Source: a virus (taxonomy: Duplodnaviria; Caudoviricetes). From it: DNA of 64,000 nucleotides. The notes beneath the pieces were generated by a model. The model did not search any database. It saw only the letters and a list, made by a program, of their open reading frames with translations, and had not been told where the DNA came from. The stretch covers positions 45,435 through 109,434 of the IMG/VR virus record IMGVR_UViG_2974770163_000001; one strand, 5' to 3'. Shown here in pieces: positions 36,527 to 49,152 of this stretch; position 1 is the stretch's first letter; each line of letters starts with the position of its first letter. The position numbers and the translations under genes were made by a program.

Positions 36527-36600
36527 TGGAGCACCCTACTGGATTTTAACCAGTCTACGGAAGTTTGCAATTTCCTACCTAGTCACTCGGTCAAAGGCGC
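36527..36600 (-). tRNA. tRNA-Cys(GCA)
   Basis: TT-GCA-AA loop, U73, atypical T loop TTAAAAT. Confidence 0.85.
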
Positions 36601-44537: not shown

Positions 44538-45583
44538 TATAAATCCTCTTTAATACAAAAGATTGCAAAGCCGATATTGGCAATAAAGTTTAATACGATT
44601 ACAAAGATTAATGCACTAGTTGGAATATCAACTACATCATCTAGGTACTTAAATGTATCATTTGGTAATCGCTTGTAGTGTTTAACAATTAAATCGTACT
44701 GTGTCTGTACTAGACTTAAATTGAACTCTGGAGACTCAAGACCGGTAGCTGCTAATTTAGTCAGCAATAGTTGGTTGTCTTGTCCATTTCCTATGGTATT
44801 CGCTCTTAACCATTTTACCCTATTATCGTCATCCAAACTGTAGACGATAACAACATCATTCTTTTTACCACCATGCCACTTGTTCATTAGTGCGTCAAAG
44901 AAATCTTCACCAGCTTGTGTAACCACTAACGTTACATTGAGTTGGTAAGTAGAACCATCTAACCTCAACTTTTCGTTGAGAAAGTTGTTGATATCAGGTG
45001 CATACTTACCAACAATTCTATTCATTCTGTAGTAGTCGTATACTCGCGGATACTCCGGTAAACTATCAGCGTACTTTTCTAAAGTAGCATCTTCCACAAC
45101 GTACATACCTTTATCCAACTTAGTGTAATTATTAACACTAAAGGTAGAGGAGTAGGGCTCACCTACTACTGCTGCTGACCATCTAGGTGGTTCTTTAAGT
45201 CCACGTCGATCTACTCGGCTAATTCTTGAGTAATCAATAGTAGATTCAACAATCCAATCTACGTCGTATGAATGCTCATCACAATAGATTGGTATACAAG
45301 TCCTATTGCCTTTTGAATCTGTAGAACATGTTTCACCACATTTATATTGGTGTTCACAACTAACACGTTCAGAATATTTTTTGGTTACATAACCATTTCG
45401 TATTTCAGTATCCCATTTACCGGAGCTTGCTGCAAAAACAGCCATTCCTAGCATTAATAGAGAACTGAATGCTGCTACCCCTAACTGAATAAGTAGCTCT
45501 TTTCTAGAGATCTTATGTCTAAAGAAAATGTTAGAGATAGCAACTACAAACAGGGAACAGGCAAATAAGATAATGAAATACAT
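44537..45583 (-). CDS. Multi-pass membrane protein with Cys-rich periplasmic domain
   Basis: Two N-terminal and one C-terminal TM; CEH.Y.C...C...C..HSYD; W.GGKKND. Confidence 0.8.
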   Translation of the reverse strand: MYFIILFACSLFVVAISNIFFRHKISRKELLIQLGVAAFSSLLMLGMAVFAASSGKWDTEIRNGYVTKKYSERVSCEHQYKCGETCSTDSKGNRTCIPIYCDEHSYDVDWIVESTIDYSRISRVDRRGLKEPPRWSAAVVGEPYSSTFSVNNYTKLDKGMYVVEDATLEKYADSLPEYPRVYDYYRMNRIVGKYAPDINNFLNEKLRLDGSTYQLNVTLVVTQAGEDFFDALMNKWHGGKKNDVVIVYSLDDDNRVKWLRANTIGNGQDNQLLLTKLAATGLESPEFNLSLVQTQYDLIVKHYKRLPNDTFKYLDDVVDIPTSALIFVIVLNFIANIGFAIFCIKEDL

Positions 45584-45702: not shown

Positions 45703-46083
45703 TTAAGCTACTAACGCGTATAGATCGCCCGCTAACAGTTCGTAAGATTCTCCTGTCTCACCATGAGTAACGCCCATGATAACAACATCTTCATCTTCAC
45801 CACCTTGTTTAACTTGCTCAGCCATAACAGAGAATACATGTACTGCATTATCATTTAGGTCGCCATTCTCGATTGCGAAGATAACATCTTCCATCATCAG
45901 AGTTGCTTCGCCGTCTTCACTTGGAACTACGATGAACCAATCTTCTAACATACCCTCTGCGATTGCTAATCGCATGAACTCAACAACGTCTGCTGGAGTT
46001 TCAACGTTGATACCTTGGTTTTCCAGTTCCGCAGTCATAACAGCAGAAACAACACCAGCGATTTTAACAGATACTTTAGACAT
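45703..46083 (-). CDS. Acidic hypothetical protein
   Basis: 126 aa; promoter at 46122-46150. Confidence 0.75.
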   Translation of the reverse strand: MSKVSVKIAGVVSAVMTAELENQGINVETPADVVEFMRLAIAEGMLEDWFIVVPSEDGEATLMMEDVIFAIENGDLNDNAVHVFSVMAEQVKQGGEDEDVVIMGVTHGETGESYELLAGDLYALVA

Positions 46084-46171
46084 ATTTTATTTCCTTTTGG
46101 ATTGATTAATTTATAAGATATATTATACAGAAAAATTCAGGATTTGACAATTGAATTTTTAAGTTTTAAAG

Positions 46172-46246
46172 TGGTACTCCCTGTAGGATTCGAACCTACG
46201 TCTATCGGTTTAGAAGACCGATGCCTATCCTCTAGACTAAGGGAGT
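46172..46246 (-). tRNA. tRNA-Arg(TCT)
   Basis: TCGGT-CTTCTAA-ACCGA. Confidence 0.92.
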
Positions 46247-47241
46247 GGAATTAATTCTACTGTTACTGGAACACAGCCTGTTGGAGGATTTTCAAAAACA
46301 TCCTCACACTTAACAGTATATGCCGGTTCTGGAGCAAATTCTAGCATTTGGTTGGCTAGGGCACTATCTGCCTGAATGTTGTTATTTATGAGCCATGATC
46401 GGAGAGTTGGAACCATCCAACCCTTAATCTGATCTTTGTCTTTGGCAGGAGACTCTAAGATCTCCTGTTCTCCGGTATCAATATATGTAATAAGAATATC
46501 TTCTTTAAGAATAATTGGCAAGATTGCCTCCTACACCTCTAGCATAGTTATGTTTACTAGACTATTAGTAGCAGTGTGAGTACCTACACACTCTTCTCTA
46601 ATGATTAGATCAAATAGGGCTTGGTCATCGATATTGATACCTAAATCATCAGCCAACATGTTCTGTACGTCTGCTGGAGTAGTCTCATCCCCATCAAGCA
46701 TAATCTGAACTTGTTCAAATTTCTCTGTCTGTAAAATCGTAATAATGTAGTCCATTAATGACTCCTTGTAGGTTATAATTAGTGAGCAGTTTTGGAGATG
46801 CTCAGCTCCACGGTTCCCCAAGGTAGTAGGGAATTAATCTAATTCAACCCAATCATTATTGGATATATTTTGACCGAAAACACCGCCGTAGAAATAATCA
46901 TCTTCATCCGTGCTCGGGAACACGATATTACCTCCGTAGTACCCATTATGCTCAGTGCGGCATTCGATATCCATTACACCAGTAGTTGTATTGATCTTGC
47001 AACCATAACGGTCTGTAACATCTCCCCATTCACTATCACTTATAGAATCAAGAGTATATGTATCTATACTAGTGATCGTAAAAGGCATACTAACTGGTAG
47101 ATCTACGTGCTGGAAGAAGCTATTAGCACAGCAGTCTCCGTCTACACGGATGATTAGATCCTCGCCTTGATCTGTAACTAATTTAATAGCTAAATCGTCG
47201 GACGCTTTAAACACTTGTACAATTGTTTTTCCGATTAACAT
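46237..47241 (-). other. Three hypothetical ORFs (46237-46521, 46531-~46755, 46834-47241)
   Basis: RBS-supported; the last has DCC...HNGYYGG motif. Confidence 0.7.
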
Positions 47242-47254
47242 TGTTTAATCTCCT

Positions 47255-47939
47255 AAAGTTGAAAGTGGTATGGGTTTAGGCTTTCTTCGTCTGCTTGACT
47301 GCCGGTTAGACCTGGCTTGCTGCATGTAGTGCCAGCGATGCTTAATTATAAGCCTCAGTTATCCTATTCTTTGCCATGTTATGGTTAACTGCATAGTCCA
47401 TCACCCCATAGCCAGTGTTATAACATAAGCGAGTTCGACACACCCATTTCGGGAAGTACTCTACACTTTTTCCAAATATCCATCTTAGATATGCAATCTA
47501 GGTCGGAGGTAGCCTCTCCTTTTATTTGGTGTGCTACGAGTAAAGTATATCCCGAAATGGGGAGTGATCAATTCCTCATTTCCAAGTTAAGTACTTGGGA
47601 CTCAGTAGTTCTAGTTCGCGACCTAGACTACCTATTCGTTGTTTTCACACATCATGCTCCTCGGGCGGAGGAATCGAACCTCACTAGAGCGCTATTTCCC
47701 AGAACCCCGTATCTTCGCAGTCTTTGTGCTACTTACTGCTTCTCCATACACTGCCCAGAGGGGGTTTCACCGTATTCGGCTCTCGTATATGGAAAGACAG
47801 AGTTTAGTGAGAGGGTTAACTTACTCTCAACATATTCTCTCAGACTCTGCACATTGTACTATGAGTCTCAGCGTAGTATGCCCGCTGTGCCTCTTATTAA
47901 ATCGTACTTTTAGACTTAATTGCCGTGTTCCGATTCAAT
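47255..47939 (-). ncRNA. ~680-nt large structured RNA candidate
   Basis: Follows promoter TTGACA-17-TATAAT (47946-47974); no RBS-supported ORF; 12-bp and 9-bp crossing helices; T-loop hairpin. Confidence 0.72.
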
Positions 47940-48278
47940 ATAAATATTATATCAAATAATAAATCAAATGTCAATTGATTTTTTAATTATTTTATTTCGA
48001 ACCCTGCAACTAGAGAATCTAGAGTTTCTAGAAACTTTAACGTTTCATTACGTTCTGCATACAAGCGCTGGCGTTCTGCATCAAGTATATCAGTTATAGC
48101 CTGTAGCACCTCAGGGCGTAAATCCCCGTGCCTAAACTCAGTTCCGAATATGTATGGACTTACTCCTACTCCGGAATTAATTTTATGGGCTGTTACTAAC
48201 GCTTTGCCTACCCTATCTAGGACTCTCTCAAGAAACTCCTGGTGTAGTTGAACTTCTTTAACTGTTTTCATTAAACAC

Positions 48279-48713
48279 CTACTTAGTGATTAGTGGTAAA
48301 ACTGAACGAGCTACAGAGCTAGCTAACTTACCGTCGTATTGACCTAAGCGACGTGCTTTTAGAGTAGCCATAAGCTCACCTAAGTTTTCAGCACCTGCAC
48401 ACTCTTTTGTGAAGAAGTCATACAGATCATCCTCAGTCATTTGTACTGGTAACATACTTGTCAAAAGTTTTACGTACAGAGGGTCAGCTTCATATACTTG
48501 ACCACTTAAAGCTGCCTTAGATCTAGTATCCTCTATAGCTTTTAACTGAGATTTAGCCCAAGTAATCATTTGATCACGAGAAACAAAATCTTTGCCAAAT
48601 TTGTATTCTAAGTCACTGATGGCTGTAGAAACCACTTTAACCCATGCAGTGTCCTTACGTAAACGTGCTTGAAGCATTTCAGCTCGCAGGAAGTCTAACA
48701 TTGACTCTTCCAT
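48279..48713 (-). CDS. GatB/YqeY-domain protein
   Basis: L....M.QA...KD, LP.QMTE, LGELM..LK....GQYDGKLAS. Confidence 0.85.
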   Translation of the reverse strand: MEESMLDFLRAEMLQARLRKDTAWVKVVSTAISDLEYKFGKDFVSRDQMITWAKSQLKAIEDTRSKAALSGQVYEADPLYVKLLTSMLPVQMTEDDLYDFFTKECAGAENLGELMATLKARRLGQYDGKLASSVARSVLPLITK

Positions 48714-48714
48714 T

Positions 48715-49152
48715 TTATTTTCCTTTTAGTGAATAGAAACGGTGTCCACCAATCTTCTCAATGAAATCCAACCTAGAATGATAAGCTAAAGGTTTTCCAC
48801 TATGGAAGAATAGTGCATCGGGTACTGTCTCAGTAATATTACCAAAGTGGTAAGATACCATTGCTACTGCCTTAGATCTTATCCACATTTTAGGTTCTCT
48901 AATCGGGTATTTATGTGCCGTCCAAGAGAACTGGTACTTTTGGTATATTACTCCGCAGTGTGTCGTAGGCTTAAATACTTTACTGTCTACTCGGTTATTT
49001 GTAACCTCAGCAACAGCAAATAATCCTCTAAGCGGCTCAGCTCTAGCCTCGTAGTAAATATTCTCAGTAAGGCAAGTAACTTGAGGATTATCAGCTAGGC
49101 TAGGGACATTAGCCATTAACATCCCTAGTGTAAATGCTAGTTCAGGAGCCAT
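48715..49152 (-). CDS. SleB-like cell wall hydrolase
   Basis: CL.ENIYYEAR.EP, V.NRV, VIYQ.YQFSW, IGGHRFY. Confidence 0.9.
   Translation of the reverse strand: MAPELAFTLGMLMANVPSLADNPQVTCLTENIYYEARAEPLRGLFAVAEVTNNRVDSKVFKPTTHCGVIYQKYQFSWTAHKYPIREPKMWIRSKAVAMVSYHFGNITETVPDALFFHSGKPLAYHSRLDFIEKIGGHRFYSLKGK

Follow-up and report, generated by a model that had tools for sequence, protein, structure and literature searches.

A large pseudoknotted RNA gene heading a phage tRNA island is a divergent RNAX relative with an architecture of its own

What is encoded in the roughly 680 nucleotides (nt) that lie between a consensus promoter and the next gene at the head of a phage transfer RNA (tRNA) island? 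The question is raised by a 64,000-nt stretch of DNA (the window; positions 45,435 to 109,434 of virus record IMGVR_UViG_2974770163_000001, Caudoviricetes). The source record comprises 109,434 bases, is estimated by the record itself to be 96% complete and holds the RNA element in one copy; the closest named relative of the window is the Providencia phage vB_PreS_PR1 (PR1; Demerecviridae, Priunavirus). A preliminary description of the window had proposed a large, ornate, pseudoknotted non-coding RNA (ncRNA) heading the tRNA island, in the size class and context of ROOL and GOLLD though matched to neither. We find that the stretch is a real, large pseudoknotted RNA gene and that it belongs to a family already annotated in T5-like phages, RNAX, which that description did not recognise. 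What is new is its divergent, differently built form, shared by a group of sequences that we call the window clade.

Membership in the RNAX family

RNAX has been carried as an annotation by database records of T5 relatives for about twenty years. In the records of DT57C (KM979354) and DT571/2 (KM979355), rnaX is a misc_RNA feature of 636 nt, described as 'stable RNA with unknown functions'; in the tRNA-region record of BF23 (AJ604530), it measures 784 nt, follows a 'promoter P16-17' and lies flush against tRNA-Arg. No paper describing RNAX was found in the literature searched, the word RNAX is absent from the BF23 genome paper (PMC10644984) and RNAX has no Rfam family. In phage T5 itself, about 830 unannotated bases lie between the YqeY-like gene and tRNA-Arg(UCU), with the same promoter type, first hairpin and core motifs as the window. 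At this locus, Rfam returned tRNA matches only, plus a sub-threshold match to an antisense small RNA (Hrs13, E = 0.06).

Sequence profiles connect the two groups in both directions. A profile of seven window-clade sequences matches seven of ten T5-like loci at the same place and on the same strand (E = 2e-11 to 2e-6), with a weaker second match, in the correct order, on their 5′ domain. A profile built from the T5 group only (six sequences: T5, DT57C, BF23 and three Epseptimavirus phages) matches the window at 47444-47330 on the minus strand (E = 4.4e-7, with the 64-kb window searched); on the 5′ domain of the window, it is not significant alone (E = 1.7). The window RNA also has the syntenic place expected of RNAX: it opens the tRNA cluster, following a YqeY-like gene and an early promoter and lying upstream of tRNA-Arg(UCU). 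Its likeness to the RNAX of BF23, DT57C and DT571/2 comprises this place and strand, a homologous 5′ domain (helices P1 and P2, pseudoknot PK1 and the motif UAAACUCU), a homologous 3′ core (P5–P9), profile E values from 4e-7 to 2e-11 and covariation across both clades.

A blastn search with the window stretch found 12 phage records only, none of them from the T5 group: two PR1 records match with 81.8% identity over the whole stretch, and ten Proteus Novosibvirus records match with about 70% identity over its 3′ half. The Proteus phages have a homologous gap of about 800 nt, poor in open reading frames (ORFs), between a coding sequence and tRNA-Arg(tct), and there the RNA abuts tRNA-Arg. The T5-type RNAX was found by blastn in 535 phage records, mostly of Salmonella, Escherichia and Klebsiella phages, and is also present in the Pectobacterium phages My1 and DU_PP_V. 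The window stretch is very probably the RNAX version of PR1-like (Priunavirus) and Proteus (Novosibvirus) phages.

The family profiles gave no match at E up to 0.01 in 20 IMG/VR loci found through the YqeY-like protein of the window, all of them distant, nor at the Vibrio phage Kronos locus. In four viral scans and one metagenome scan with conserved motifs, the Stubb and PM135 copies were the only ones to come up besides chance matches, and loci L008, L009, L012 and L033-L036 were rejected as family members, being unrelated on alignment. A degenerate pattern for the P2 hairpin picked out 62 stretches, 26 of them with the UAAACUCU motif downstream; the rest were mostly coding or chance matches.

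Other RNA families were tried and rejected. With a threshold of E up to 1, Rfam cmscan of positions 30000-52000 found tRNA genes only, 31 matches in all, none of them within 47242-47986. The models of GOLLD, ROOL and OLE, with which the preliminary description had proposed to search, were run through Rfam; as none of the three covariance models matched at E up to 1, identity with any of them was rejected, and the comparison with ROOL and GOLLD stands for size and context only. Identity with transfer-messenger RNA (tmRNA) was rejected as well, with no ARAGORN tmRNA call in the window and no match to an Rfam tmRNA family.

Strand, fold and the two shared domains

The stretch is poor in ORFs, as first described: on the minus strand, none between the promoter and the ATG at 47241 exceeds 39 amino acids (aa). 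Two ORFs, of 140 aa (47491..47913) and 106 aa (47639..47959), lie on the plus strand, where the PR1 record also has an annotated coding sequence at the RNA locus. Both ORFs are missing or broken in six of six homologues. Compared with PR1, their substitutions by codon position are 19/17/22 and 16/18/14, with no third-position bias, and indels of 1, 2, 7, 14 and 3 nt break the frame; the neighbouring DUF7448 gene, as a control, gives 23/15/63 and in-frame indels only. Codon-type conservation of the two ORFs, an alternative that the preliminary description had raised, was thus tested and not seen, and on these comparisons a protein-coding reading of the RNA stretch is excluded. The minus strand is predicted to fold at −205.5 kcal/mol (z = −5.6), which none of 20 shuffles equalled; the plus-strand fold is weaker (z = −3.2). 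Because conserved G-U pairs (in 15 of 17 sequences in PK1 and 7 of 16 in P7) would be mismatches if read on the other strand, the RNA is assigned to the minus strand.

Covariation among homologues, also proposed at the outset, was assessed on three alignments, and the helices covary. As a control for pairing, helix partners were slid, which left 27-46% of cells paired across the three alignments. In the alignment of the 5′ domain (A5; 17 sequences, 16 pairs), 97.4% of cells are paired compared with 32-46% when slid, and 9 of 16 pairs change on both sides; in that of the 3′ core (A6; 16 sequences, 22 pairs), 94.9% are paired compared with 27-39%, and 14 of 22 pairs change on both sides. The covariation score of neither was reached by any of 500 shuffles. 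The window-clade structure (7 sequences, 57 pairs in 9 helices) has 100% of cells paired compared with 31-39% when slid, and 12 of its pairs change on both sides. Since the sequences are related and the structures were derived from these same sequences, the covariation counts are somewhat inflated. For the two shared domains, covariation spans Escherichia, Salmonella, Klebsiella, Pectobacterium, Proteus and Providencia phages. With covariation in three alignments and no coding signal, the proposal of a large, ornate, pseudoknotted ncRNA heading the tRNA island is supported. The 5′ part is built as follows.

47270..47939, minus strand: whole RNAX-type ncRNA, about 670 nt; 5′ end inferred from the promoter, 47270 being the last conserved base
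47899..47936, minus strand: P0 hairpin (GAAUCG/CGAUUU), window clade only, absent from T5
47793..47894, minus strand: 5′ domain common to T5 RNAX (alignment A5)
47889-47894 with 47793-47798, minus strand: P1, closing helix of the 5′ domain
47869-47887, minus strand: P2 hairpin of the 5′ domain
47842-47868, minus strand: P3 hairpin, 4 of 5 pairs changing on both sides
47830..47881, minus strand: pseudoknot PK1, P2 loop GCAUA (47877-47881) with UAUGU (47830-47834), across P3
47809-47828, minus strand: P4 hairpin of the 5′ domain
47799-47806, minus strand: invariant UAAACUCU, directly preceding the 3′ strand of P1

Nearly every lineage has its own P1 sequence, and one or more variable hairpins lie between the PK1 strand and UAAACUCU. 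The six pairs of P0 are formed in all seven sequences; one pair varies, on one side only. PK1 is strongly supported. Four loop variants occur among the 17 sequences of A5: with GCCGA, GCAUA and GCAGA, all five pairs are standard, and with GCCUA (two metagenomic sequences, mis-aligned in A5), four of five pairs form after hand correction. Pairs 18-95 and 19-94 change on both sides. The RNA is therefore pseudoknotted, as the preliminary description claimed, through a different pseudoknot from the one it proposed (see below).

The 5′ domain is absent from DT57C, and the Salmonella phages gmork and KFSSM have an ORF in its place. This ORF, about 160 aa long, separates the promoter from the RNAX core (gmork, L045 1238-1720; KFSSM, L046 717-1199) and is annotated 'homing endonuclease' in KFSSM and 'hypothetical protein' in gmork. 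The 5′ domain module also occurs alone in three metagenomic phage contigs (L069 3155-3290, L070 511-646 and L063 7153-7214) that have no match among named phages; these modules carry P1, P2, the pseudoknot partner and a UAAACC motif. In L069, the module sits inside an array of 18 tRNA genes, and in L063 directly before tRNA-Ile.

The 3′ core, supported by alignment A6 and the match to the T5-only profile, comprises five helices and several conserved single strands.

47270..47447, minus strand: 3′ core
47443-47447 (AUGGG) with 47270-47274 (CCCAU), minus strand: P5, long-range helix closing the core, with cross-clade covariation
47420-47428 with 47359-47367, minus strand: P6/P7 stem, with a conserved G-G mismatch inside and a variable insert at its tip
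47373..47412, minus strand: plain 40-nt hairpin at the tip of P7 (cross-clade alignment), where the T5 group has a tRNA-like insert
47340-47354, minus strand: P8 hairpin, covarying
47331-47333 (GGC) with 47279-47281 (GCC), minus strand: P9
within 47270..47447, minus strand: conserved single strands AACACUG, AAGA, UCGC and UAAACC

The tRNA-like insert at the P7 tip, as described here a trait of the T5 group, is not found in the window. In the T5 group, it scores 35.5 bits with the Rfam tRNA model, receives no ARAGORN call and is variously annotated as Ser, Sec, Pro or 'OTHER'. An RNase P-like reading of GAAGAAAGCC and GGCUUAU was dropped: GGCUUAU forms the covarying P8, and GAAGAAAGCC is absent from T5. 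A helix inside GGGUGUGUCGAAC found no consistent register in the cross-clade alignment. A boxA-like antitermination signal was rejected, the candidate being confined to the window and PR1 and absent from the Proteus clade.

The central domain and its tRNA-like module

Between the two shared domains, the window clade carries parts of its own. In the alignment of its seven sequences, invariant blocks alternate with hairpins that change on both sides together.

47710..47792, minus strand: variable hairpins, about 80 nt, fast-evolving and poorly alignable even with PR1
47443-47709, minus strand: extra central domain, about 270 nt, window clade only
47661..47709, minus strand: tRNA-like minihelix, a T-arm inside an acceptor-like stem
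47668-47682, minus strand: T-arm, stem GAGG/CCUC with the canonical 7-nt loop UUCGAUU
47706-47709 (CGGG) with 47662-47665 (CCCG), minus strand: acceptor-like stem enclosing the T-arm
47604-47632, minus strand: Pc1 hairpin with the invariant 8-nt loop GUCGCGAA; 9 pairs, 2 changing on both sides
47562-47603, minus strand: helix Hc enclosing hairpin Pc2 (6 pairs, 2 changing on both sides)
47443..47561, minus strand: long hairpin with an invariant 12-bp helix as its base
47550-47561 with 47443-47454, minus strand: 12-bp helix, invariant in 7 of 7 sequences
47540-47546/47458-47464, minus strand: He, lineage-variable yet complementary, as read from sequences and folds
47523-47529/47472-47478, minus strand: Hf, lineage-variable yet complementary, as read from sequences and folds
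47505-47519, minus strand: Hg hairpin, within the long hairpin
47486-47500, minus strand: Hh hairpin, 2 pairs changing on both sides

The order of the central domain is T-arm minihelix, GUCGCGAA hairpin, three-way junction and long hairpin, and the cells of Pc1 and Pc2 are all paired in seven of seven sequences. The T-loop hairpin GAGG-TTCGATT-CCTC and the perfect 12-bp helix of the preliminary description were both located, as was its local stem 47472-47478/47523-47529. The T-loop is kept across the clade; the T-stems differ by lineage (GAGG, UACGG, CUGGG, CUAGG) and so do the enclosing stems (CGGG, UACGGG, UCCAAG, GUUAUCUG, AUCCGUUA). Neither ARAGORN nor Rfam called a tRNA at 47661-47709, which holds a T-arm and an enclosing stem only and no complete cloverleaf. 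The segment from P3 through the T-arm (47662-47865) is the fastest-evolving of the RNA and aligns poorly even with PR1.

The pseudoknot first proposed, a 9-bp helix between 47497-47505 and 47619-47627, did not withstand comparison. It is a perfect complement in the window and is not kept in relatives: across seven homologues, 74.6% of cells are paired, no pair changes on both sides and three of nine pairs are broken in five of seven sequences. Both arms are part of local hairpins, Pc1 and Hh, whose pairs do change in a compensatory way. A residual contact of 4-5 bp may exist in its place.

In the window clade, two helices of the RNA compete for bases. Positions 47443-47447 belong to the 3′ strand of the 12-bp helix (with 47557-47561) and also to the 5′ strand of P5 (with 47270-47274). 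With the 12-bp helix forced, the minimum free energy is −203.6 kcal/mol; with P5 forced, the fold is 12 kcal/mol less favourable and still contains 7 bp of the 12-bp helix. P5 covaries across clades, whereas the 12-bp helix is invariant, so covariation gives no test of the latter. Because of this competition, the RNA could switch between two architectures.

The window clade thus differs from T5 RNAX in its P0 hairpin and in its central domain of about 270 nt, with T-arm minihelix, GUCGCGAA hairpin and invariant 12-bp helix. T5 has a tRNA-like insert where the window clade has a plain hairpin, and the clade lacks the 3′ extension of about 430 nt found in T5. In the window and PR1, unlike T5, three small genes precede tRNA-Arg, and both are without a loop formed by GUCAUGAC. 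This self-complementary octamer is present at 37 of 43 family loci; besides the window and PR1, four of the other loci lacking it are cut short. In the T5 group, it lies within the 3′ extension, about 417 nt after the core start, and in the Proteus clade in the Hh loop, 55 nt before the core start (for example at locus L002), closed by GGG/CCC. As modelled there, the hairpin loop would suit loop-loop (kissing) dimerisation.

Relatives were also found in four public sequencing runs, as assembled contigs, which cannot show expression, RNA level or ends. One contig of an RNA-seq run (X19) is identical to 47866-47955, then has 217 unlike letters in place of 47662-47865 (204 bases), and continues with a match of about 90% to 47270-47661, 345 other letters, tRNA-Arg and tRNA-Met; this contig shows a third lineage with a different middle part. 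In a wastewater cDNA run (X9), contigs cover 47567-47925 and tRNAs, and none covers the flanking genes.

Genomic setting and possible roles

The RNA follows a promoter and is separated from the tRNA genes by short ORFs.

47946..47974, minus strand: sigma-70 promoter with extended −10 (TTGACA-17-TATAAT with TG), 12 of 12 consensus positions
47241..47254, minus strand: Shine-Dalgarno AGGAG and ATG of the next gene, which encodes a DUF7448 protein (46834..47241)

The consensus promoter noted in the preliminary description indeed outscores the ten other promoter-like sites of 46000-49000 (11 found, 7.8 expected by chance); its −10 and the first transcribed bases are invariant in seven homologues, and BF23 has its 'promoter P16-17' at the equivalent site. 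Transcription is inferred to start near 47939. Four terminator-like sites were found in 46000-49000, every one on the plus strand, and there is none on the minus strand, nor any between the RNA and the DUF7448 gene. In the direction of transcription, an exonuclease-like gene, a SleB-type cell wall hydrolase, the YqeY-like gene (48279..48713) and a 94-aa ORF lie upstream of the promoter (47974..47946), and the DUF7448 gene and small ORFs of unknown function lie downstream of the RNA, with three small ORFs before tRNA-Arg(tct) (46172..46246). These flanking genes are on the minus strand too, as are all 27 tRNA genes found by ARAGORN between 32849 and 46246. At 36530-36600, again on the minus strand, ARAGORN makes no call, yet the score with the Rfam tRNA model is 37.3 bits (threshold 29); this may be a 28th tRNA or tRNA-like gene of the island.

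A mosaic boundary with PR1 is seen at about 47960, when 47987-49152 is compared with 46834-47945. Upstream of the promoter, the three genes carry one or two substitutions each relative to PR1; the RNA gene and the DUF7448 gene carry dozens. From this boundary, the RNA appears to have been swapped as part of a module that begins at the promoter.

What might such an RNA do? In the reading that we consider best, an RNAX-type ncRNA gene acting in trans, to which as a whole we give a probability of about 0.45, host RNA polymerase would transcribe the RNA as the first part of a long tRNA/ORF transcript, the tRNA-processing machinery would cut it free, and it would persist as a compact folded species. 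Since the RNA is flush against tRNA-Arg(UCU) in BF23, DT57C and the Proteus phages, RNase P would there generate its 3′ end. In the window, three small genes separate the two. The tRNA-like module, held on a rigid scaffold, would then occupy a host factor that recognises tRNA shape, candidates being a defence nuclease that cleaves tRNA or an enzyme that processes or modifies it. Such engagement of a factor that reads tRNA shape is a tentative proposal, favoured here because both clades keep a tRNA-shaped module on a conserved scaffold; part of the T5 tRNA region has already been shown to have an anti-defence role, which such engagement would fit. That RNAX is a modular RNA machine, showing tRNA-shaped modules on a pseudoknotted scaffold and so trapping or redirecting a host enzyme, we regard as improbable.

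RNAX is probably accessory and dispensable in the laboratory, because the record of a T5 deletion mutant has none: it is absent from the one complete-genome record of T5 st0 (AY692264) and present in three of three controls. The st0 record annotates a recombination site between tRNA-Asp and a truncated YqeY-like gene, and with the deletion (L108, 4168-4347) rnaX is lost, as are a portion of the YqeY-like gene and the genes as far as T5p066. In T5 and SP15, deletions of about 8 kb have been described that arise spontaneously and remove an 'anti-defence island' with tRNA-Tyr and anti-retron genes, an island that may or may not include rnaX (10.1101/2023.03.15.532788).

Several points weigh against a trans-acting tRNA mimic. 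In six of seven sequences, a spacer of 1-3 nt lies between the T-arm and the 3′ strand, so the minihelix would lack the stacking of a true tRNA, and because the two clades place their tRNA-like parts differently, these may be independent additions. Persistence as a 'stable RNA' is taken from the wording of the BF23, DT57C and DT571/2 records, which concern other phages; the decoy idea is a tentative one; the loss of modules in DT57C, gmork and KFSSM is as compatible with a loose set of modules as with a single machine; and the covariation counts, from structures derived from the same related sequences, are somewhat optimistic.

The position of the RNA would also suit a leader acting purely in cis, whose modules protect, insulate or guide the processing of the tRNA/ORF transcript, by offering RNase P or E a place to enter, by shielding the 5′ end or by resisting premature termination, and whose freed RNA has no job. 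A strong promoter immediately precedes it and no terminator-like site separates it from the next gene, it abuts tRNA-Arg in BF23, DT57C and the Proteus phages, its 5′ module adjoins or sits between tRNA genes in unrelated metagenomic phage contigs, and its modules can be lost, up to the whole RNA in the T5 st0 record. We hold this account to be somewhat less likely than the trans-acting one: many unpaired nucleotides, a pseudoknot and long-range helices are conserved across phages of six host genera, which is more than a spacer needs, and annotators name RNAX a stable RNA. Nor is a position at the start of the transcript required, since the gmork and KFSSM cores lie away from the promoter and the L069 module lies in the middle of an array.

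The chances are slimmer for an RNA-only multimer of the ROOL/GOLLD type, in which copies would be joined by loop-loop contacts into a cage or ring. The size class, the phage origin and the adjacent tRNA genes are the same (cryo-electron microscopy paper: 10.1101/2024.12.08.627333), and GUCAUGAC, frequent in the family, forms a hairpin loop in the Proteus clade folds; the window and PR1 have no such palindromic loop, and neither GOLLD, ROOL, OLE nor any other Rfam family matched at the threshold given above. A plus-strand protein-coding region (47491..47913 or 47639..47959) or a DNA element such as an origin or recombination site can be given hardly any weight. Such a reading could draw on the two plus-strand ORFs, on the PR1 coding sequence and on the near-identity to PR1 on one side of the promoter with divergence on the RNA side, which marks a recombination boundary at the promoter. 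The ORFs are kept in none of six homologues, with no third-position bias and with frame-breaking indels, and the compensatory changes and strand-specific G-U pairs point to RNA.

Comparison with known systems places the window RNA among several kinds of phage and cellular RNA. GOLLD and ROOL are large ornate RNAs, usually found in prophages or in phages near tRNA genes. The window RNA shares with them a size class of 600-800 nt, many helices, pseudoknots, phage origin and adjacency to tRNA genes; it differs in having no covariance-model match and in host range, its carriers being lytic T5-like phages of enterobacteria. Modules resembling tRNA inside larger RNAs are familiar from the tRNA-like domain of tmRNA and from MALAT1-mascRNA. 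Here, too, a T-arm with a canonical 7-nt T-loop closed by G-C and an acceptor-like helix are embedded in a larger RNA, and by analogy the T-arm module could be a handle for tRNA-recognising enzymes. Unlike tmRNA, the window RNA has no tmRNA match by ARAGORN or Rfam, no tag reading frame and no CCA end, and, unlike both systems, a spacer breaks the stack of acceptor and T-arm in most window-clade lineages. The T5 RNAs RNAI, RNAIII, RNAIV, RNA1, rna2 and RNA2H (AY692264) are likewise non-tRNA genes among phage tRNA genes, annotated without function; at 100-170 nt they are shorter, and they occupy other places in the island.

As a divergent branch of RNAX, the window separates the conserved parts of the family, a pseudoknotted 5′ domain and a five-helix 3′ core, from optional modules, namely the tRNA-like inserts, the central domain and the palindromic loop. 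The carriers of RNAX include model and therapy-candidate phages. The covariation-backed structure provides a basis for the design of mutants, with T5 st0 as a ready control lacking the RNA, and the role of the T5-region stable RNAs can now be tested directly in ordinary laboratory hosts. If the modular-machine reading is true, RNAX would be an RNA-only counter-defence or takeover factor.

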